This document shows, piece by piece, positions 856 through 9,602 of a stretch of DNA of 12,022 nt. Position 1 is the first letter of the stretch. Each line of letters starts with the position of its first letter. Source of the DNA: Candidatus Wukongarchaeum yapensis (GTDB lineage Archaea > Asgardarchaeota > Wukongarchaeia > Wukongarchaeales > Wukongarchaeaceae). The notes beneath the pieces are model-generated. The model searched no databases and was not told where the DNA came from. It worked only from the letters and a program-made list of their open reading frames with translations. Both the position numbers and the translations under genes were made by a program. The DNA is taken from the NCBI GenBank assembly GCA_016840425.1, contig JAEOSI010000047.1, positions 1-12,022 of the forward strand. Direction: 5' to 3'.

Positions 856-2070
856 TTGGAAATGTCTGGTTTAAACAATGATAACGAGGGTAATGGTGAT
901 AATGAGGAGTTTGTGGTAACGCCTTGGGAAGTTCGCGGAAAAATTGATTATGATATGCTTGTTGAAAGGTTTGGCACTCAGCGTGTTGATGATTCTTTGT
1001 TAGGGATGATAGAATCCCGGGTGGGCGAGTTGCACCTGCAACTTCGTCGGGGAATTGTTTATTCGCACCGCGATTTTGATTTGATTCTTAAAAGGTTTGA
1101 TGAAGGAGAAAAGTTTGCCCTCTACACTGGTAGAGGTCCTTCAGGCGGTGTTCATTTAGGTCACATGCTCCCTTGGTTTTTCACCAAGTGGTTACAAGAC
1201 AATTTTGATGCAGATCTCTATTTTCAGATGACTGACGACGAGAAGTTTTTGTTTAACCCAGATCTCACACTGGAAGACACTCAAAAGTTTTCTTTGGATA
1301 ACGCTTTAGACGTTATGGCTGTAGGTTTAAACCCGAAAAAAACATTTATAATGATCGATACACGGTGCTCCAGAACCCTTTATAATCTTGGTATAAAGTT
1401 TTCTAAACATGTCACATTCTCAACTGCGAAAGCCGTTTTTGGTTTTAAAAACTCTGATAATATCGGCATGATCTTTTTCCCTACAATCCAGGCCATGCCT
1501 TGTTTTTTGCCCTCGTTGGTTGAAGGGAAAAATGTCCCCGTATTGATTCCAGCTTCTATCGATCAAGATCCATACTGGAGAGTTACACGCGATGTAGCCC
1601 CCAAAATAGGCTTTTATAAACCCTCTCAACTTCATGGCAAATTGCTTCCTGGGCTTTCTGCTTCGGGGAAAATGTCTGCTTCACAACCTGAAACTGCGAT
1701 TTTCACCAAAGATTCGCCTGAAGAAGCTAGAAAGAAAATATGGCGTGCTTTTACTGGCGGGAGAGTCACGATAGAAGAGCAAAGAAAATACGGGGCTAAT
1801 CCTGATATTTGCGCAGTTTTCGCCTATTATTACTTCCTCTTTGAGGAAGATGATGAAGCCCTTAAAGAGCGAGAAAGAAGGTGTAAGACGGGCGATCTTT
1901 TATGCGGCGATTGCAAAAACGATCTAATCGAAAGAATAGTAAAATTTTTGCGTGAGCATCAAAAGAAAAGAGAGAAAATGAAAGACATACTAGACCAAGT
2001 TTTGATCGATGATAGTTTCTTTGATTCTCGTATAAAAAGTGCCGCAGAAAGAGGCTTTCCCGATGGTTAG
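856..2070 (+). CDS. trpS: Tryptophanyl-tRNA synthetase, archaeal/eukaryotic type
   Basis: TPWEV N-terminal motif, YTGRGPS, HLGH (HIGH), IDQDPYW, GKMSAS (KMSKS) and C-terminal LLCGDCK. SD AAGGAG at 845-850 precedes TTG 856; alternative ATG at 862. Confidence 0.98.
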   Translation: MEMSGLNNDNEGNGDNEEFVVTPWEVRGKIDYDMLVERFGTQRVDDSLLGMIESRVGELHLQLRRGIVYSHRDFDLILKRFDEGEKFALYTGRGPSGGVHLGHMLPWFFTKWLQDNFDADLYFQMTDDEKFLFNPDLTLEDTQKFSLDNALDVMAVGLNPKKTFIMIDTRCSRTLYNLGIKFSKHVTFSTAKAVFGFKNSDNIGMIFFPTIQAMPCFLPSLVEGKNVPVLIPASIDQDPYWRVTRDVAPKIGFYKPSQLHGKLLPGLSASGKMSASQPETAIFTKDSPEEARKKIWRAFTGGRVTIEEQRKYGANPDICAVFAYYYFLFEEDDEALKERERRCKTGDLLCGDCKNDLIERIVKFLREHQKKREKMKDILDQVLIDDSFFDSRIKSAAERGFPDG

Positions 2071-5000
2071 TGCCGATACCTTTATGAGCAAGCATAGAGG
2101 CTTTTTCGACTTTGATTCTTTTAATGAGGTTCAGCTATCTGTTTTTGATTCGGCTTTTAACACTGATGATAACGTGATAGTGGCAGCTCCTACAGGCGCG
2201 GGGAAAACTGTAATAGCGGAGTTAGCGATGTTGAGGGAGTTTAGTGAGGAAAAGGTTCGGGATAGAGGTTTTAGAGGTAAATGTTTATACCTTACACCTT
2301 TTCGAGCACTCAGCTATGAAAAAGAAAAAGATTGGGTAATGAGGTTTGGTAGAAAAGGTTTTAGTGTCTTGGTTTCTACTGGTGAGCGTGAAATTACCCC
2401 TAGGGAAGGGGAAAAAGCGGACATCATCATAAGTACCGTAGAGAAATGGGATTCGATCACGAGAAAGTGGCGGCAACCTAGAAACCGTTTTGCAACCGAA
2501 GTCACTCTTGTAATCATAGATGAAGTGCATTTGTTGGATGAGGATAGGCGGGGTGCTACCCTTGAAGTTTTGATCTCTCGTTTGAAGAAGATCGCTGAGG
2601 AACAGGGCAGAAGGTTGCGCGTAATTGCTCTGTCCGCGACTATGCCTAATTTCAAAGAGATAGCTGAATGGCTTGAAGCCAAACCTAACAGCACTTACTT
2701 TTTTGACGAGTCTTTTCGCCCCGTGAAGCTTTATGCAGATGTATGGTATTATAAGCCTGCTGATAACCCTTTCTACGATAAGTATAGGCGCTTATATAAG
2801 GTTCTCGATCTAGCTTCTAGACATCTTAATGAAGGAGAGTCTGTTTTGGTCTTTGTTTCAAGCCGCTCTGACACCGTTTTGGCTGCTAAAAAAGTGTCTG
2901 AAATTTGGGCGGAACACGGTTTTCCTTTTATTACGAGCAAAGATAGAGAAAAGCTTGCTGATCTCGCTCAGAGGGTAACTAATCCGAGGTTAAAAGCTGT
3001 TTTGCCTTCTGGGGTTGCTTTCCATAACGCTGGTCTAAAGATCAATGATAGGCAACTTATTGAAAAAGCTTTCAGGGAAAAAACCGTGAAGCTCTTATTT
3101 TCAACAAGCACGCTTTCTTGGGGCGTTAATCTACCTGCCAAATGCGTGATCATTCGGGATGTAACGGTTTACGACTCAATCGTAGGGGAAAAAGAAATTT
3201 CTCCCATAGACTTGATACAAATGCTAGGCAGAGCTGGTCGCCCAGGGGAAACTGATGAAGGATACGCTTGGATCATTATCGATAAGGAGAAAGCTCCCAC
3301 TTATAGGAAGTTGATAACTGAAGGAAAAGCGATAGAATCACGCTTATTAGAATCATTAGCAGAGCATATCAACGCGGAGATACAGCTCGGCACGATTAAG
3401 GCGTTGAAAGATTTAGAAACATGGATTCAAGACACATTTCTCTTTATTCGAGCGAAGCATAATCCGGAGCTTTACGGTTCTATAAACATTAAAAGTGAAG
3501 CTTTAAAAGCCTTAAACAGTCTCATAGAGGATCAATTCGTTGAGAAAAGTGAGGATGGAGTTTTCAGTTCCACGCCTTTAGGTCAACTTACCTCCATTTT
3601 TTACATGCGGTTAGAAACCGCGAAGCTTTTTCATAAAAATTGCATAGACGGCGTTTTAAAAAGCGACGATGATCTCCTCTGCACCGTTGCTATGGCTAAA
3701 GAATTTTCAGACGCGGTGCTAAGACGCGGCGAAAAAAAATACTTTAAAGAATTTTTAGAAAAAGTCTCTTCCAGTCTATTCAAAGGTTTATCTTCTGGAA
3801 ACAAAAAAGTGCTTGGAATCTTTCTTTCACTTTTATCCCGCCAATTATGGGAAGGGTTTCGCAGCGATGCTTACGTCTTAAAGAATAATGGGACAAGATT
3901 GCTCCACGCTTTATCCAGCTTTATTGGAGAATTCATGCAAGATCAAAAAATTGAGCTTCGCGCAAGAATCCTTTCCATACGCCTTAAACATGAAGCTCCA
4001 GAAGCTTTAGCTTTCCTACTACAAGTAGCCGGTATCGGTTACAAAGGTGCAACAATACTTGCTTCAAAAGGAATAACTCAACCTAACCAACTCATTTCCC
4101 AAGTCTCAGAAAAAGGATTGGATTGGCTATTATCGCTGGGTTTGAGGAGGATTAACGCGGAACGCGTAGTGTCATTCGCAAAGAAAGCCGCTTTAATAGA
4201 AGTTGAATGGGTAAAAGTGCCCGAAAAACTGCCTGAAGGCGAGAACACGAATTTCGAATTCAAAATCAAATGTCTTAACGGTTACCCAAAACTCGGAATT
4301 ACTGCCTCCCTCAACGATAAAACCTTAATCCGCCAAACTATGCGCCTCAAAAAGGGCGATACTTATACTTTACCTTTCGGAATATCTGTTCCAAAAGGTG
4401 TTTATTTAATAACAGCCAAAGTCGACATCTTCGTCCAAGATGCGCAGTTCTCCTATCCTATAACGAGCCAAAAAGTTATCGAGGTTCAAAAGCCTCCAAA
4501 AGCACCGTCTAAACCAATTTTCAAAGAAACACAAACAAAAGCACCTTCCAACGCCGAAAAAACGGTTTTCAAAACCGCTGAAGAAGTGCTAAAACCGCCT
4601 GAAGAAAAACCATCAGAACAATCCATAATAGCTGTAGGAGCCACCTCCTACTCTGTAAAAGATGCCAACATAAACATAAAATGGCCGGAGGCCCTCGTAA
4701 TAATCTCACCACATCAAGGTGGAAAAATCAAAATAATTAACCTGCAAACAATGGAAGAAATAAGCAACGAAATGAATTTTAGTGAAAGCGAAATAGAAGT
4801 CTCCGGTTCTAATGTTGAAGGAAAACTAATGACAAAGGCTGGAGAAGCAATACTCACCATCGCTTCAGAAACCGTTATGCGAGCAAAACCAGAGTACGAT
4901 GAAAAAATAACAAAAACCGCGCTCATTCAAGCCTTAACGCCTCTAAAACAAGAAGTAATCCAATTTGAAGAAAAAAAACCATCTTTTTTCGCGTGCAAAT

Positions 5001-5431
5001 GCGGCGGTCATCTCATTGAAAACAAAACACAAAACGCGATGTTAATCCAATGCGATCACTGTAAAGCCGAATATAAACTTCCGCGAAAGGCCTCTATTAC
5101 CAACGAAAAATGCAATAAATGCGGACTTCCTAAAGCTAGATTACCATACGTATACGACCTCTTAATATGCATTGATAGATCATGCGAAAGCATGGACGAA
5201 ATCATAAAGAACAAGTTCGAATCAGAAGGCTGGAAGTGCACGGAATGCGGCAGTCCCTTGATAGTTATTCGGAGAAAAGGACTCGTTGTCGGTTGCTCGA
5301 ACTATTACAAAGGATGCAAAACTGCATATAAGTTTCCAGATGGCGTTATCATAGGTAAATGTGAAAGATGCGGTTTACCGAAATTTAAACTTAAAACAAA
5401 AACCCGCTGCTTGAACTCAAAATGTGTTTAG
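2063..5431 (+). CDS. Ski2-like SF2 (DEVH) helicase of Mer3/HFM1/Brr2-like type, with Sec63-like region and four C-terminal C4 zinc ribbons
   Basis: APTGAGKT (2186-2209), TPFRALSYEK, EKWDSITRKW, DEVH (2519-2530), SAT, LVFVSSR, STSTLSWGVNLP, QMLGRAGRP, EHINAEIQLGTI, HhH-like VAGIGYKGA, beta-rich region about 4200-4490, and 8 Cys pairs at 4994-5425. Start placed at ATG 2063 (GAGG at 2051-2054, 8-nt overlap with trpS) rather than GTG 2039. Confidence 0.93.
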   Translation: MVSADTFMSKHRGFFDFDSFNEVQLSVFDSAFNTDDNVIVAAPTGAGKTVIAELAMLREFSEEKVRDRGFRGKCLYLTPFRALSYEKEKDWVMRFGRKGFSVLVSTGEREITPREGEKADIIISTVEKWDSITRKWRQPRNRFATEVTLVIIDEVHLLDEDRRGATLEVLISRLKKIAEEQGRRLRVIALSATMPNFKEIAEWLEAKPNSTYFFDESFRPVKLYADVWYYKPADNPFYDKYRRLYKVLDLASRHLNEGESVLVFVSSRSDTVLAAKKVSEIWAEHGFPFITSKDREKLADLAQRVTNPRLKAVLPSGVAFHNAGLKINDRQLIEKAFREKTVKLLFSTSTLSWGVNLPAKCVIIRDVTVYDSIVGEKEISPIDLIQMLGRAGRPGETDEGYAWIIIDKEKAPTYRKLITEGKAIESRLLESLAEHINAEIQLGTIKALKDLETWIQDTFLFIRAKHNPELYGSINIKSEALKALNSLIEDQFVEKSEDGVFSSTPLGQLTSIFYMRLETAKLFHKNCIDGVLKSDDDLLCTVAMAKEFSDAVLRRGEKKYFKEFLEKVSSSLFKGLSSGNKKVLGIFLSLLSRQLWEGFRSDAYVLKNNGTRLLHALSSFIGEFMQDQKIELRARILSIRLKHEAPEALAFLLQVAGIGYKGATILASKGITQPNQLISQVSEKGLDWLLSLGLRRINAERVVSFAKKAALIEVEWVKVPEKLPEGENTNFEFKIKCLNGYPKLGITASLNDKTLIRQTMRLKKGDTYTLPFGISVPKGVYLITAKVDIFVQDAQFSYPITSQKVIEVQKPPKAPSKPIFKETQTKAPSNAEKTVFKTAEEVLKPPEEKPSEQSIIAVGATSYSVKDANINIKWPEALVIISPHQGGKIKIINLQTMEEISNEMNFSESEIEVSGSNVEGKLMTKAGEAILTIASETVMRAKPEYDEKITKTALIQALTPLKQEVIQFEEKKPSFFACKCGGHLIENKTQNAMLIQCDHCKAEYKLPRKASITNEKCNKCGLPKARLPYVYDLLICIDRSCESMDEIIKNKFESEGWKCTECGSPLIVIRRKGLVVGCSNYYKGCKTAYKFPDGVIIGKCERCGLPKFKLKTKTRCLNSKCV

Positions 5432-5501
5432 AACCCGCAAATACCCCCGCATTTTATGATTATTTAACCGTCTACTGGAAGTTTGTATCATTCAGGTGAG
5501 T

Positions 5502-5585
5502 ATGAGGGTGATATTGGTTTTTTTAGTCTTAGTTTTTTCTAGGTTTGTAATGTTTTTCCTTGCCTTTATCTTTCATTTAATTTGA
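5502..5585 (+). CDS. Possible small hydrophobic protein (25-27 aa)
   Basis: MRVILVFLVLVFSRFVMFFLAFIFHLI*. SD-like AGGTGA at 5494-5499 lies 8 nt before in-frame GTG 5508; the stop abuts the SD of the next gene. T-rich DNA gives hydrophobic ORFs by chance, so support is weak. Confidence 0.25.
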   Translation: MRVILVFLVLVFSRFVMFFLAFIFHLI

Positions 5586-5595
5586 CGGTGATTTT

Positions 5596-5997
5596 TTGGT
5601 TAAAATAGAAAGCGAACAAGAGTTTTTTCATAAGTGTACAAAGTGCGAAACTGTTTTTTCTTCAAATTTTGAAGACCTTATTTCTGGATGTCCTATCTGT
5701 AAAAATATGCTGTTTAAGCTAATCATCAAGAAAAACCCCGCGGATAACTCCAAAAGGGTAGAGGATAAAGTAAATCATGAGAAGAAATCTGAAAACAATG
5801 CCCAAAATTTTGAGAAAAAGAAAGAAGTGAAACGGGGAGAAGAAGCGGTTAAAGAAGCATGCGAGGTTGAAGGGATAAAAGTTCTCGAACCAGGTGTTTA
5901 TCTTTTGGATATCAATAAGTTGGTAACGGAAGAAACAATAGTCTTGGAGGAAAAAGAGGGAGTGTTTAGAATAGCGATTCCCTACGCAAAAAAATAG
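5596..5997 (+). CDS. Zn-ribbon protein, DUF2072 (OapC/ArvC-like) family
   Basis: N-terminal HKCTKC-x14-CPIC, a charged variable linker, and C-terminal VEGIKVLEPGVYLLDINKLVTEETIVLEEKEGVFRIAIP, matching the recalled DUF2072 pattern (ESIRIxxPGxYELNL...EEGxYxI). TTG start with SD GGTGA at 5587-5591. Confidence 0.85.
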   Translation: MVKIESEQEFFHKCTKCETVFSSNFEDLISGCPICKNMLFKLIIKKNPADNSKRVEDKVNHEKKSENNAQNFEKKKEVKRGEEAVKEACEVEGIKVLEPGVYLLDINKLVTEETIVLEEKEGVFRIAIPYAKK

Positions 5998-6356: not shown

Positions 6357-6953
6357 TTGACAAAATCTGGAAAGGAGACCCGGAGTATACCCAACTACTC
6401 AGAAGCTCTTACTCTTCTTCATGTTTTAAGAGTTCCATGGAATGTTATAAAACATTCGATTTTAGTCGCTAGTTTTGCTAAGAGAATAGTTGAGTCTTTA
6501 AAAAATGATAATTCAATTGATGAGAATCTTGTTTTTGCGGGTGCTTTGCTTCATGATGTGGGAAGAACAAAGAGTCATGGGGCAGACCATGGAATTATAG
6601 GAAGAAAAATATTGTTAAGTTTAGGTTTTCCTGATCGCCTTGCTCGTGTATGTGAAACTCACACGATTTTTTCTGTAGAAGATGAAGAAACTTCAAACAT
6701 GTTAGGTATACCTGTAGGAGAATATTTACCAAAAACCCTTGAAGAAAAGATCATAGCCTACTCTGATAAAAGAATACATGGCGAAAGAATACTTTCATCG
6801 GTTGAAGAGCGGTATGAGTACTGGTTTAAAAGATTCGGCGAACAAAAGGTTCTTGTTAAAGGGTTAAAAATTTGCAAAGAGATAGAAAAAGAATTAGCCG
6901 TCCTTGCTGGACAAAAAAAACAGTTATTCGTAGGAAAAGTAAGATGGGCATGA
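6357..6953 (+). CDS. HD/HDIG-domain metal-dependent phosphohydrolase (archaeal TIGR00295-like)
   Basis: HSILVA...ALLHDVGRT...HGIIG...ETH...YSDKRI metal-binding motifs; TTG start with SD GAGG at 6345-6348. Confidence 0.9.
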   Translation: MTKSGKETRSIPNYSEALTLLHVLRVPWNVIKHSILVASFAKRIVESLKNDNSIDENLVFAGALLHDVGRTKSHGADHGIIGRKILLSLGFPDRLARVCETHTIFSVEDEETSNMLGIPVGEYLPKTLEEKIIAYSDKRIHGERILSSVEERYEYWFKRFGEQKVLVKGLKICKEIEKELAVLAGQKKQLFVGKVRWA

Positions 6954-7029: not shown

Positions 7030-7563
7030 ATGAAAGAGACCAAAGATTCGTCTAAAAAGACGAACAAAATGAAAAAAGTATTCATGTTTGGGAGCGAAAA
7101 CGAGTTTCAAATTCTATATAGTATTATGGTTCTTGTAGACATAGTTCTCGTAATAGCATTCGGTATACGGATTTTAGGAGAAGTTGTAATCGAGTTAGAA
7201 GTAGAATATTGGATCCTTATTGTCATAATTTTAACTCTCTTCGTTGATAAAATAAAAACGGCTTTAGCACTCGCCTATCAAAGTATTGTAAACATTACCG
7301 ACTTTTTAAGCCAAAAAGTCCTTGAAGAGAACCCCAAACTCAACCTCGTCAAAAGCTTCATAATCACCGGTATTCTCACCTTTGCAGTCTGGTGGTATGA
7401 TTTCTTGAACTCATGGATTGATTGGGTTAAAGATCATAGTGATTTTTGGTATTTAGATGTGATTCTTTTGGGTGGAATCGTGTTTCTGACTACGTGGTTA
7501 GTAGTCTCTTTAATAGTCTACGGGACAAGTAAAAGCATCCCCACTCCTTCTGCTAAAAAATAA
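7030..7563 (+). CDS. Hypothetical integral membrane protein (about 4 TM segments)
   Basis: 177-aa ORF with a basic N-terminus and four hydrophobic stretches (QILYSIMVLVDIVLVIAFGI; YWILIVIILTLFV; FIITGILTFAVWWY; VILLGGIVFLTTWLVVSLIVY). No family recognised. Confidence 0.75.
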   Translation: MKETKDSSKKTNKMKKVFMFGSENEFQILYSIMVLVDIVLVIAFGIRILGEVVIELEVEYWILIVIILTLFVDKIKTALALAYQSIVNITDFLSQKVLEENPKLNLVKSFIITGILTFAVWWYDFLNSWIDWVKDHSDFWYLDVILLGGIVFLTTWLVVSLIVYGTSKSIPTPSAKK

Positions 7564-7611: not shown

Positions 7612-9567
7612 CTATTTTTTTAGTTCTTTTTCTACCTTTGTTTTTTCTTTCTGTTTATTCAAAATCGTTTCTTTTAAGTCTTCGATGGTTTTTTCCATCG
7701 ATTCAAGCTTGCCTAAAAACGTAGTTTTTAACGCTTCTTCCTTATGGGATGTGCCCAAAGTTTTTATGTTTTCACGAAGTCTTTCCTGTTCCCTGTAGAG
7801 AGTTTCTAATTCCTCTTTCAAAGCGGTAATATCTTGCTCCAAGATTTCGCGTTCTTTTATGAGTTTTCGTTTATTCATTAGCTTTGCAAAAATTTCCTCG
7901 TCTATTACGCCTTCTTTCTTTAACTTTTCAAGCTGTTCATCAGTCAACTCTTCCAATCTTCTATAAGTCTTCACTATCCGCTTCAATGTCACCCCAAATC
8001 TTCGCGTGGCTTTTCTCTCAACGTTCACAAGCCACCTATAAGCTTGGGGAGTCTCTTGGTAAAGTTCTGGCGCTTCAAACGGCTCAAACACCTCCCCATA
8101 CCAATGTTTTGAATGTTCCAATATCACTTCCGCATCCTCATCTTTACTGTTTGATATAATGTATGTGGTTTCAAGCACCTTTGAAACCGATTCCACGATC
8201 GATCTATACTTTTTATCTAAGGTTACGCTCGTAATTTCCGTCTTTTCCTCCCTTTCAACATTGATGTTTATCTCCTGTTCTAAAACGAAAGGTATGAGCC
8301 TTTCATTCTCCTTTTTCATGGTGGGAAGTATCCCCTCACCAGAATAAGCCCCGTCTGCAAAAAGGGTAATTGGTCCTTCTTCAAGCATTGCTTGGCTCGT
8401 GTTTTTCAGCTCGATGCACATTAACGGGTTTTTTAAATAAGCTTCCTCGTTGAAAAGATAGCGTTTTTTAGTTTCAACCTCTTCCCTCAAAATTGGCACA
8501 AGGGCAGATTGGTTGCGCTTAACTGTCACCGGCTTATTTACCGAATAGGCAAAGAACTCTCCCAATTCCACTGTTGTAGTTTCAACTTTTACATCACTCT
8601 TCGCTCTAACGGGATGTCCTCCCAACTCTTTATCCATGGCAACACTGGCAAGGGCGGCTCTAGGGCTTGGAGGCGGCATAGCTTTGGGGGCATAATATTC
8701 CTCTTCCACCTCTTCTGCCTTCGCTTTTTCTAATTCTGCTTCAGGGATTATCGGTCGAAGCCCTATGTCTTCCCTGCGTTTGACCACTGGTCTTTTCATC
8801 CATAAGGGTGAATAGCTATCATATTCAAAGCTTATCGGGAGACCTGTTACAAGGGTTAGCTGAACGTCTTCCCAGTCAATTCCCCGCGGGTTGTCCACTA
8901 TCGCAAATCCTTCCAAAAAACTCTTTTCTTCAATACTTGTTTTAAAAAGACGATAAGTCGTCTTCCAAGCAGGACTTTCTATGGCGTAGCGAATAAGCAC
9001 CTCAAAGGGAGGTTCTCCATCAAAATGTATCGTTACAGGTTTCATCGTTCTTTTTTTTGCTTCAGCCTGCGTTTCCAGATAAAAAGCAAAATCTTTTGCC
9101 TTTTCCAAGTCTAAAAGTTCCATGCTTTCAATCCTATCAACGTTGATGAAAGCAATGTTTTTCGTTTTTTCATCATAAAAAGAAACCATGACACGTCCTT
9201 CTTTCTCTTCCGCAAACTCTTCAACCCCGATTATCCGACCTTCTTTTTCCTCCTCTCCTGAAATTTTTATCCTAACCCTTTCCCCAGTAAAGGTCTCAAA
9301 AAGGGTCTTAATCCCTGATTCAGGCGATATCGATATTCCTGTCCTTTCTAAAATTTCTCCCACGTCTATTTTAGAACCGAACTGAACAGATACCACTCCC
9401 GCTTCTTTTTCACCATAACAACTCACAGCAAAACTCTTTAACAGATCATTCATGTCATCCTCTTCAAAAAACAGCCTAGCAATTTTTTCCTCCAAAGTCC
9501 CCGTCATCTCTATAAACGCTATACCATGACGATAAATTATCACCCTTGAAACTTTTAACTCAGTCAT
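7612..9567 (-). CDS. DUF4139-type protein with long C-terminal coiled coil
   Basis: N-terminus VSRVIIYRHGIAFIE and DMNDLLKSF, central PAWKTTYRL, GFAIVDNPRGIDWEDVQLTLVTGLPISF, FAYSVNKPVTVKRNQSALVP, and C-terminal EQERLRENIKTLG heptads; these resemble recalled DUF4139/DUF4140-like proteins. Start placed at ATG 9567 because SD GAGGGG is at 9583-9578 (the track's TTG 9585 overlaps it). Confidence 0.8.
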   Translation of the reverse strand: MTELKVSRVIIYRHGIAFIEMTGTLEEKIARLFFEEDDMNDLLKSFAVSCYGEKEAGVVSVQFGSKIDVGEILERTGISISPESGIKTLFETFTGERVRIKISGEEEKEGRIIGVEEFAEEKEGRVMVSFYDEKTKNIAFINVDRIESMELLDLEKAKDFAFYLETQAEAKKRTMKPVTIHFDGEPPFEVLIRYAIESPAWKTTYRLFKTSIEEKSFLEGFAIVDNPRGIDWEDVQLTLVTGLPISFEYDSYSPLWMKRPVVKRREDIGLRPIIPEAELEKAKAEEVEEEYYAPKAMPPPSPRAALASVAMDKELGGHPVRAKSDVKVETTTVELGEFFAYSVNKPVTVKRNQSALVPILREEVETKKRYLFNEEAYLKNPLMCIELKNTSQAMLEEGPITLFADGAYSGEGILPTMKKENERLIPFVLEQEININVEREEKTEITSVTLDKKYRSIVESVSKVLETTYIISNSKDEDAEVILEHSKHWYGEVFEPFEAPELYQETPQAYRWLVNVERKATRRFGVTLKRIVKTYRRLEELTDEQLEKLKKEGVIDEEIFAKLMNKRKLIKEREILEQDITALKEELETLYREQERLRENIKTLGTSHKEEALKTTFLGKLESMEKTIEDLKETILNKQKEKTKVEKELKK

Positions 9568-9602
9568 AAATAAACAACCCCTCAAAAATTTAGAGTAAAA
9601 AC

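Follow-up and report, generated by a model that had tools for sequence, protein, structure and literature searches.

A single-cassette Brr2/ASCC3-type helicase with a four-zinc-ribbon tail in an Asgard archaeon, and its split counterpart in Halobacteria

We analysed a 12,022-nucleotide stretch of DNA (the window) from the Asgard archaeon Candidatus Wukongarchaeum yapensis, which is the whole of one contig (C261) in a fragmented 2.16-Mb metagenome-assembled genome (MAG). The window carries a gene in which a helicase of the Brr2/ASCC3 type is followed, in the same reading frame, by a tail of four zinc ribbons (Table 1). The overall explanation that we favour, with a probability of about 70%, is that the protein is a helicase with a tethered ribbon tail that binds single-stranded nucleic acid, the two parts being a conserved pair of which the fused form is ancestral.

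Helicase and ribbons as one gene or two

Halobacteria encode the two parts separately. A haloarchaeal helicase of 794 amino acids is 39% identical to the protein over 779 residues and carries both DKYRRLY..LDLA and VFVSSRQDTVQAAKK, the two motifs that an initial annotation, made from the sequence alone, had named for the shorter haloarchaeal helicase (about 780 amino acids). The separate small zinc-ribbon/NucS-domain protein described in the same annotation also exists: stand-alone proteins of 245-316 amino acids carry the same four ribbons behind a NucS_N domain (PF21003), and they share the claimed motifs (YxLP, CGLP, C(I/V)DRxCE, WxCPxCG and RCLD). With the NucS_N part of a stand-alone protein as query, a scan in which each species was represented by one genome gave 492 relatives, of which the best 80, all from Halobacteria, were kept, and the neighbouring genes at these 80 loci were located by tblastn. 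The gene order is helicase, NucS_N-ribbons, endA, trpS, all on one strand except at two loci, one with the helicase inverted (L056) and one with endA-trpS on the other side and strand (L081). A helicase gene is found within 10 kb of the ribbon gene at 62 of the 80 loci, endA at 76/80 and trpS at 67/80. Helicase and ribbon gene are direct neighbours in the Halobacteriaceae (Halobacterium, Salarchaeum and Halarchaeum), with 35-55 bp from the stop of the former to the start of the latter; other genes, up to 7.4 kb, lie between them in the Natrialbaceae.

The same association is seen in genome content. Among 401 genomes sampled evenly from the haloarchaeal phylum, 83 hold both parts, 10 the helicase only, two the ribbons only (on cut contigs) and 306 neither; 83 of the 95 genomes with at least one of the parts therefore have both, a figure that, given the kinship among the genomes, is a description rather than a statistical test. 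A predicted complex of one haloarchaeal helicase (L023) with its NucS_N-ribbon neighbour scored 0.00, which speaks neither for nor against binding. The Rosetta-stone coupling proposed in the initial annotation is borne out by the distribution, with separate neighbouring genes in Halobacteria and a single gene in Asgard archaea and non-halophilic Halobacteriota. There is also a stand-alone family co-located with the helicase, the NucS_N and four-ribbon gene, and the matches of the tail are not limited to topoisomerase ribbons. Judged by gene content and order, the helicase and the ribbon array can be considered a conserved working pair.

Integrity of the gene

Positions 2063-5431 are one real, intact gene. 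The frame is open from GTG 2039 or ATG 2063 to the stop codon at 5429-5431, without internal stops; ATG 2063 is preceded by AGAGG, and the start of the helicase gene overlaps the trpS stop by 8 nt. The 90% identity cluster of the protein has 10 members from separate assemblies, all of them 1122 amino acids long and 96.5-99.9% identical, with no indels. The DNA is present in 19 sequencing runs from 13 studies (of marine sediment, seawater, mangrove and marsh), and contigs from two other studies span the fusion region (X2 covers 1800-4938 and X7 covers 3941-5600) with substitutions only and without a gap or joint. The chance that the long open reading frame is an artefact, produced by a chimeric assembly, an overlooked stop or a frameshift around 4490-4620, is negligible: the 10 assemblies are independent, the bridging contigs cross this region without an indel or joint, and fused orthologues are known in other families and in another phylum. 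The uninterrupted frame reported in the initial annotation therefore stands, as does its domain order (helicase with Sec63 unit, Pro/Lys/Glu linker, domain of about 90 residues, Cys-rich tail), which matches the layout obtained with Pfam and AlphaFold2 (AF2).

Table 1. Features of the window, those of the fused gene first (residues are numbered in the fused protein; aa, amino acids; pLDDT, predicted local distance difference test score of AF2 models)
Feature	Positions	Strand	Basis or remark
Whole gene: Brr2/ASCC3-type single-cassette helicase with four-zinc-ribbon tail	2063-5431	+	1122 aa and stop
RecA1 (DEAD/DExH), residues 22-199	2126-2659	+	PF00270, E 2.9e-27; motif I AAPTGAGKT, II DEVH, III SAT
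RecA2 (Helicase_C), residues 315-395	3005-3247	+	PF00271, E 3.6e-11; motif VI QMLGRAGRPG
SNRNP200-type winged helix, residues 425-493	3335-3541	+	PF23445, 46 bits, cut-off 27
Sec63 helical (ratchet) part, residues 503-625	3569-3937	+	PF02889, 47.6 bits, cut-off 25
HhH part of Sec63 unit, residues 651-708	4013-4186	+	PF14520, weak, 18 bits; aligns with haloarchaeal and Asgard orthologues
Ig/FN3-like beta-sandwich, residues 712-815	4196-4507	+	AF2 all-beta, pLDDT about 60-74; conserved in haloarchaeal orthologues
Pro/Lys/Glu-rich flexible linker, residues 816-872	4508-4678	+	Low complexity by eye; pLDDT <50; length differs between orthologues
Lineage-specific insert, residues 873-972	4679-4978	+	Low-confidence beta-hairpin and helical hairpin (918-970); AF2 pLDDT 27-80
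Four-zinc-ribbon array, residues 974-1122	4982-5428	+	Net charge +14; 16 Cys (residues 978-1121)
Ribbon 1	4994-5062	+	
Ribbon 2	5111-5185	+	
Ribbon 3	5237-5317	+	
Ribbon 4	5360-5425	+	
trpS (tryptophan--tRNA ligase)	856-2070	+	NF008927, 524 bits, cut-off 478
OapC/ArvC homologue	5596-5997	+	PF09845
HD-domain protein	6357-6953	+	Best NCBIfam TIGR00295; HD half of archaeal tRNA (cytidine56-2'-O)-methyltransferase fusion; both below cut-off
177-aa open reading frame	7030-7563	+	No Pfam or NCBIfam match
657-aa open reading frame	7612-9585	-	Weak DUF4139 match only

The helicase core

The catalytic motifs (GAGKT, DEVH, SAT and QMLGRAGRPG) are intact, and invariant among the aligned orthologues. A phmmer search of the PDB with the first 830 residues gave ASCC3 (583 bits), human Brr2 (550), yeast Slh1 (541) and, far lower, the Archaeoglobus Hel308 (202). 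There is one cassette in the protein. The PF02889 (Sec63) match ends at model position 123 of 252, and the Ig-like domain that follows the HhH part occupies the place of the third subdomain in the Sec63 units of Brr2 and ASCC3; when residues 710-1122 were modelled with AF2 without an alignment, this domain alone was folded. Foldseek searches with it return generic beta-sandwiches, with Brr2 (7dco_D) at rank 44. In an IQ-TREE phylogeny the Brr2-type clade is set apart from the Hel308 outgroup at 100/100. We classify the core, from its domains and its place in the tree, as an archaeal "Brr2-Ski2" helicase whose Sec63 unit is probably complete, and not as Hel308. An assignment to Hel308 was rejected, as the NCBIfam Hel308 models (NF040935/PRK02362 and relatives), whose cut-offs are 887-1216 bits, give it 217-320 bits. 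A Hel308-like gene does exist elsewhere in the genome, on contig C136.

The archaeal Brr2-Ski2 group of Ski2-like helicases was described by Batista et al. 2024 (PMC10946056), who reported members from Halobacteria, from two Methanocellales and from a single Heimdall genome and proposed that the group was acquired from eukaryotes. The protein described here shares with that group the DExH core, the winged helix, the Sec63 unit and the grouping with eukaryotic Brr2-type proteins apart from Hel308, and the haloarchaeal members are 39-43% identical to it. That paper, however, gives no tail, partner or function, and what is added here is the presence of the family in several Asgard families and in uncultured Halobacteriota, the zinc-ribbon or NucS_N and HRDC tails, the split partner and the endA/trpS neighbours. 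No mention of the ribbon or NucS_N and HRDC tails, the split partner, the endA-trpS neighbourhood or the Asgard spread was found in the literature searched. The helicase family, which the initial annotation had taken as part of an uncharacterised system, had already been described.

Among better known relatives, Hel308 (Hjm) belongs to the same superfamily and has the same five-domain plan as far as the HhH part, but it is distant (about 200 bits and about 30-36% identity) and has neither the Ig-like domain nor a tail. Brr2/SNRNP200 is closer, in that the winged helix fits the SNRNP200-type Pfam model, the Sec63 unit probably includes an Ig-like domain and it is the N-terminal cassette that scores 550 bits; the archaeal protein differs in its single cassette and in lacking the PWI and plug regions, and archaea have no spliceosome. 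ASCC3 and Slh1, with their partners TRIP4 and Rqt4 (PDB 8alz and 7zpq; PMC10076317), are the best-scoring solved relatives and have the full Sec63 unit, and there too a helicase is aided by a partner with a zinc finger and a beta-barrel nucleic-acid-binding domain. These eukaryotic proteins nevertheless carry their cassettes as a tandem pair behind long N-terminal regions, the archaeal clade lies outside both cassettes, and the zinc finger and ASCH domain of TRIP4 are, as far as tested, not homologous to the ribbons or to NucS_N. A further combination of an archaeal Ski2-like helicase with a Cys4 zinc module is found in ASH-Ski2 (PMC10946056), which belongs to another subfamily (COG1202), has a single N-terminal zinc finger and lacks the Sec63 unit.

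The zinc-ribbon tail

The first ribbon starts at 4994, the position given in the initial annotation, and the 16 Cys of the tail form four ribbons of the CxxC...CxxC type (nt 4994-5425). All 16 are invariant in an alignment of three fused proteins, and in a set of 44 tails they are at least 93% conserved; AF2, run with a 44-row alignment, models residues 974-1122 at a pLDDT of about 96. Only 47 matches were returned when residues 860-1122 were searched with phmmer against 1.84 billion representatives; those to the Cys-rich part are long helicases of 980-1114 amino acids and small proteins of 89-316 amino acids. The best match to the ribbon model among AFDB clusters is a 251-amino-acid stand-alone form (E 1e-11, root-mean-square deviation 2.1 A over 151 residues); apart from a few unnamed entries, nearly all the others are zinc-finger arrays from the C-termini of type IA topoisomerases. 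A topoisomerase tail is also a direct sequence match to the ribbons, and Foldseek of the PDB places E. coli topoisomerase I first, weakly (E 0.016). With PF01396 the tail here scores 17 bits, below the cut-off of 32, which a relative (P0011) reaches with 32.5. A wide VIA-align search with the tail model was dominated by unspecific matches to the helical hairpin at 915-973 and was uninformative.

The tail can thus be assigned, by sequence and predicted structure, to the Cys4 ribbons of the type IA topoisomerase kind, of which it has four. It shares the ribbon fold and the tandem arrangement with type IA topoisomerases (E. coli TopA, 4rul; TOP3B, 9cah; PF01396), but the gene has no topoisomerase catalytic domain and the four-ribbon unit has conserved motifs of its own. 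Fused tails have a net charge of +5 to +14, with four aromatic and three Arg positions conserved; the haloarchaeal copies of the ribbons are acidic overall. Due to the topoisomerase-type fold, the positive charge and the conserved aromatic and Arg positions, the tail is most simply read as a predicted binder of single-stranded nucleic acid. The C-terminal ribbons of type IA topoisomerases bind single strands.

About 1.5 kb downstream of its fused gene, one Asgard genome (G037) also encodes a stand-alone two-ribbon protein of 74 amino acids (L115:1501-1722, minus strand) that shares 57% identity with ribbons 3-4.

The insert and the relation to NucS

Between linker and ribbons lies an insert of about 100 residues that the initial annotation had taken for a NucS-N-like module. 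NucS_N is a genuine accessory of the family, being fused to the helicase in Methanocella and carried by the haloarchaeal partner; the insert here, on the other hand, is not detectably NucS-like. Residues 873-972 gave no Pfam match at E values up to 10, and a six-frame search of the genome with PF21003 found a sole match, the true nucS on another contig (C124), and nothing at the insert. Aligned by hhalign with two NucS_N profiles, one haloarchaeal and one broader that includes Methanocella and the genome's own NucS, the insert obtained a probability of 0.1% each time. The phmmer search found no homologues of the insert outside its own species cluster (860 to about 955 being covered only by the protein itself), and a search of the ESM Atlas gave no usable match. 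The insert is missing from two aligned fused Asgard orthologues (G037 and G040) and has no similarity in the other fused relatives. On a possible half-barrel (PH-like) fold, AF2 confidence is too low at 850-920 for a comparison, the insert having no alignment depth, and residues 918-970 are predicted as a helical hairpin. Among the 10 strains 7% of its columns are variable, similar to the other non-core domains. Two resemblances, which are leads and not evidence, were seen: the insert takes the position that NucS_N has in the split partner, and the spacing from Gly to "SPH" (ALVIISPH) equals, by eye, that from Gly to "KPD" in NucS_N.

Compared with NucS/EndoMS itself, the system shares the N-terminal domain PF21003, present in the split partner of Halobacteria and in the fused helicases of Methanocella, but it differs in having no RecB-like nuclease domain anywhere, no match in the insert and no linkage to nucS. 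Pfam scans found no RecB-like nuclease domain in the open reading frame, and no family member carries the NucS nuclease domain. No nucS gene stands beside the helicase gene at any locus examined.

Fused forms, alternative tails and evolution

A Brr2-type helicase is found in 8 or 9 of 400 genomes of Asgardarchaeota, and a true tail in seven genomes from four families, always inside frames of 987-1131 amino acids or cut by a contig end; in all, 4-5 Asgard families have fused forms. Fused homologues carry the NCBI labels Lokiarchaeia, Promethearchaeota and Sigynarchaeota. About 20 of the 401 Halobacteriota genomes (small, and non-halophilic in appearance) have fused genes as well, of 970-1046 amino acids; their NCBI label is "Halobacteriota archaeon". 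One Asgard genome (G316) has two paralogous fused copies, with frames of 995 and 1015 amino acids (C44:1889-4831 and C40:43752-46694).

Seven further Halobacteriota genomes have long helicase frames without ribbons. Four of these, Methanocella-type loci (L143:7527-10457, plus strand; L144, L145 and L146), were fetched and encode helicases of 990-1022 amino acids, each of which ends in a NucS_N-like and then an HRDC-like stretch; Pfam gives 34-37 bits for PF21003 and 63-70 bits for PF00570 on two of these tails. Because ribbon tails thus alternate with NucS_N and HRDC tails, the helicase family, to judge from these sequences, carries interchangeable, putatively nucleic-acid-binding tails, among which NucS_N counts as a genuine accessory.

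The phylogeny was built with IQ-TREE (LG+C20, 49 rows and 759 columns, with Hel308 as outgroup). It includes two Brr2 proteins and no Mer3/HFM1, the haloarchaeal rows have biased composition, and the naming of the groups followed inspection of the tree. Fused Halobacteriota and split Halobacteria come out as sister groups (94/96), with two fused Asgard clades outside them, suggesting that the fused form is ancestral and that Halobacteria split the gene, most simply on the haloarchaeal stem. The initial annotation had pictured the fusion of two genes; the tree favours the opposite course, an ancestral fused gene that was later split in Halobacteria.

Eukaryotic ASCC3 and Brr2, with both their N- and their C-terminal cassettes, form a clade supported at 100/100, and the archaeal clade (89/95) is its sister group. 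The approximately unbiased test rejects a forced grouping of the archaeal proteins with the C cassettes (p 0.0005) and, weakly, one with the N cassettes (p 0.03). The tree argues against a recent transfer from crown eukaryotes, while an early transfer would still be compatible with it. Since the family is found in several Asgard lineages and branches outside both eukaryotic cassettes, the published proposal of a transfer from eukaryotes to archaea is reopened.

Genomic neighbourhood

The helicase gene of the window is flanked by trpS upstream and oapC downstream. At all seven fused Halobacteriota loci examined it is the divergent neighbour of endA-trpS; no neighbours common to the Asgard loci were found. 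A genome of the same genus (G001) has the order PAC2-trpS-oapC, with about 18 bp where the 3.4-kb helicase gene lies here. It keeps (L147:5640-5720) the ATG and the first seven helicase codons, six of them identical (MVNADTF), and rejoins about 6 nt past the stop, in comparison with 2063-2083 and 5432-5460 here; it follows that the gene was deleted there, that its adjacency to trpS is older than the genus and that it is dispensable.

A block transfer of trpS and helicase from Halobacteriota has left no sign: the TrpRS here is 50-58% identical to both Asgard and Halobacteriota TrpRS. In a search for an intron-bearing tRNA-Trp, Aragorn called 29 tRNA genes in the MAG, most of them with introns, and no tRNA-Trp. 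A 104-amino-acid fragment, 97% identical to the TrpRS here, lies at a contig end (G000:C79:2-313) and suggests strain heterogeneity in the bin. The OapC/ArvC zinc-ribbon protein of Haloferax shares an operon with the vesicle-forming GTPase ArvA (PMC10927574). An Arf/Ras-like small GTPase (L005:180-776, minus strand) follows the helicase orthologue of one Asgard genome (G040).

Proposed function and alternatives

If the protein works as its parts suggest, the motor would, like its relatives, move 3' to 5' along one strand, and the linker and the insert of about 100 residues would tether a rigid, strongly basic ribbon array to it. The ribbons would hold single-stranded nucleic acid beside the motor, either as the loading strand or as the displaced one, and their role would resemble that of the zinc finger and ASCH domain of TRIP4 in assisting ASCC3, which depends on a partner that combines a zinc finger with a beta-barrel domain for nucleic-acid binding (TRIP4; PMC10076317).

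The substrate may be RNA or DNA. Because the sole conserved genomic partners are endA (the tRNA-splicing endonuclease) and trpS, a role on RNA is slightly favoured, and there is perhaps an even chance that the protein serves the processing of bulge-helix-bulge RNAs (pre-tRNA, pre-rRNA) or another translation-linked task. A role in DNA repair is possible, and somewhat less expected. The pathway put forward in the initial annotation, in which helicase and zinc ribbons process branched or mismatched DNA together with NucS/EndoMS or by mimicking it, we consider unlikely. It would account for NucS_N on the haloarchaeal partner and, in Methanocella, for the fusion of NucS_N and HRDC, a RecQ-type module, to the helicase, and it agrees with the ribbons being of the single-stranded-DNA-binding topoisomerase IA kind and with Hel308, the nearest archaeal family, being a DNA repair helicase. 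The members, however, have no NucS nuclease domain, nucS is on another contig and at no examined locus, the insert here is not detectably NucS_N, and the conserved neighbours are instead endA and trpS; the proposed link to NucS/EndoMS and to mismatched or branched DNA is not supported.

Resemblance to ASCC3 raises the question whether this is an archaeal counterpart of the RQT/ASCC machinery, in which stalled or collided ribosomes would be cleared by the helicase pulling on mRNA, with the ribbons in the part of TRIP4/Rqt4. ASCC3 and Slh1 are the best matches in the PDB, NucS_N and ribbons echo the zinc-finger and beta-barrel partner of ASCC3 (PMC10076317), and linkage to trpS is translation-related. 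We nonetheless regard it as improbable, as the protein has a single rather than a tandem cassette, Pfam scans find neither a TRIP4-type zinc finger nor an ASCH domain, and there is no ubiquitin-binding partner; moreover, the archaeal clade branches before the split between ASCC3 and Brr2, and a specific function of either is for this reason not transferable to it. Nor do we expect, by a similar measure, that the ribbons are a module for protein interaction or oligomerisation, docking on EndA, the ribosome or a second helicase copy, rather than a nucleic-acid binder. Zinc ribbons often mediate protein contacts, those of E. coli topoisomerase I also contact RNA polymerase (9gd* entries), and the haloarchaeal copies are acidic; but this acidity fits halophile proteomes generally, the fused tails are positively charged with conserved aromatic and Arg positions, and the alternative Methanocella tails (NucS_N and HRDC) are nucleic-acid binders.

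Several points weigh against the explanation that we favour, a helicase paired with a single-strand-binding tail, with a lean towards RNA because of endA and trpS. That the ribbons bind nucleic acid rather than protein is predicted from their fold and charge. Topoisomerase-type ribbons, NucS_N and HRDC are best known from DNA enzymes, and DNA is also the substrate of Hel308, of Mer3 and, in part, of ASCC3. The literature searched held no biochemical or genetic data on any family member, and no relevant papers on HVO_2953 to HVO_2956. The helicase-ribbon gene is dispensable in the same-genus genome, and the endA/trpS linkage is absent at the four Methanocella loci and the other Asgard loci examined. 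Where the linkage is present, the arrangements in Halobacteria and in the fused Halobacteriota may differ by a local inversion alone, so that they are not fully independent, and endA-trpS1 of Haloferax volcanii reportedly forms a bicistronic unit that has a start site of its own (PMC7714728).

Implications

The eukaryotic relatives of the helicase serve the spliceosome and ribosome rescue. A bolder and rather doubtful suggestion is that the single-cassette, ribbon-tailed helicase is the prokaryotic stock of Brr2, ASCC3 and Slh1 from before the duplication of the cassettes, already working with EndA on intron-bearing or bulge-helix-bulge RNAs. If this were true, the tie between a Brr2-like helicase and RNA splicing or processing would be older than the spliceosome. 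More directly, the fusion, the split pair and the alternative tails point to a partner module, and so to a first functional lead for the Brr2-Ski2 family, and the endA-trpS neighbourhood offers a concrete hypothesis that is testable in the genetically tractable Haloferax volcanii, which has both genes.

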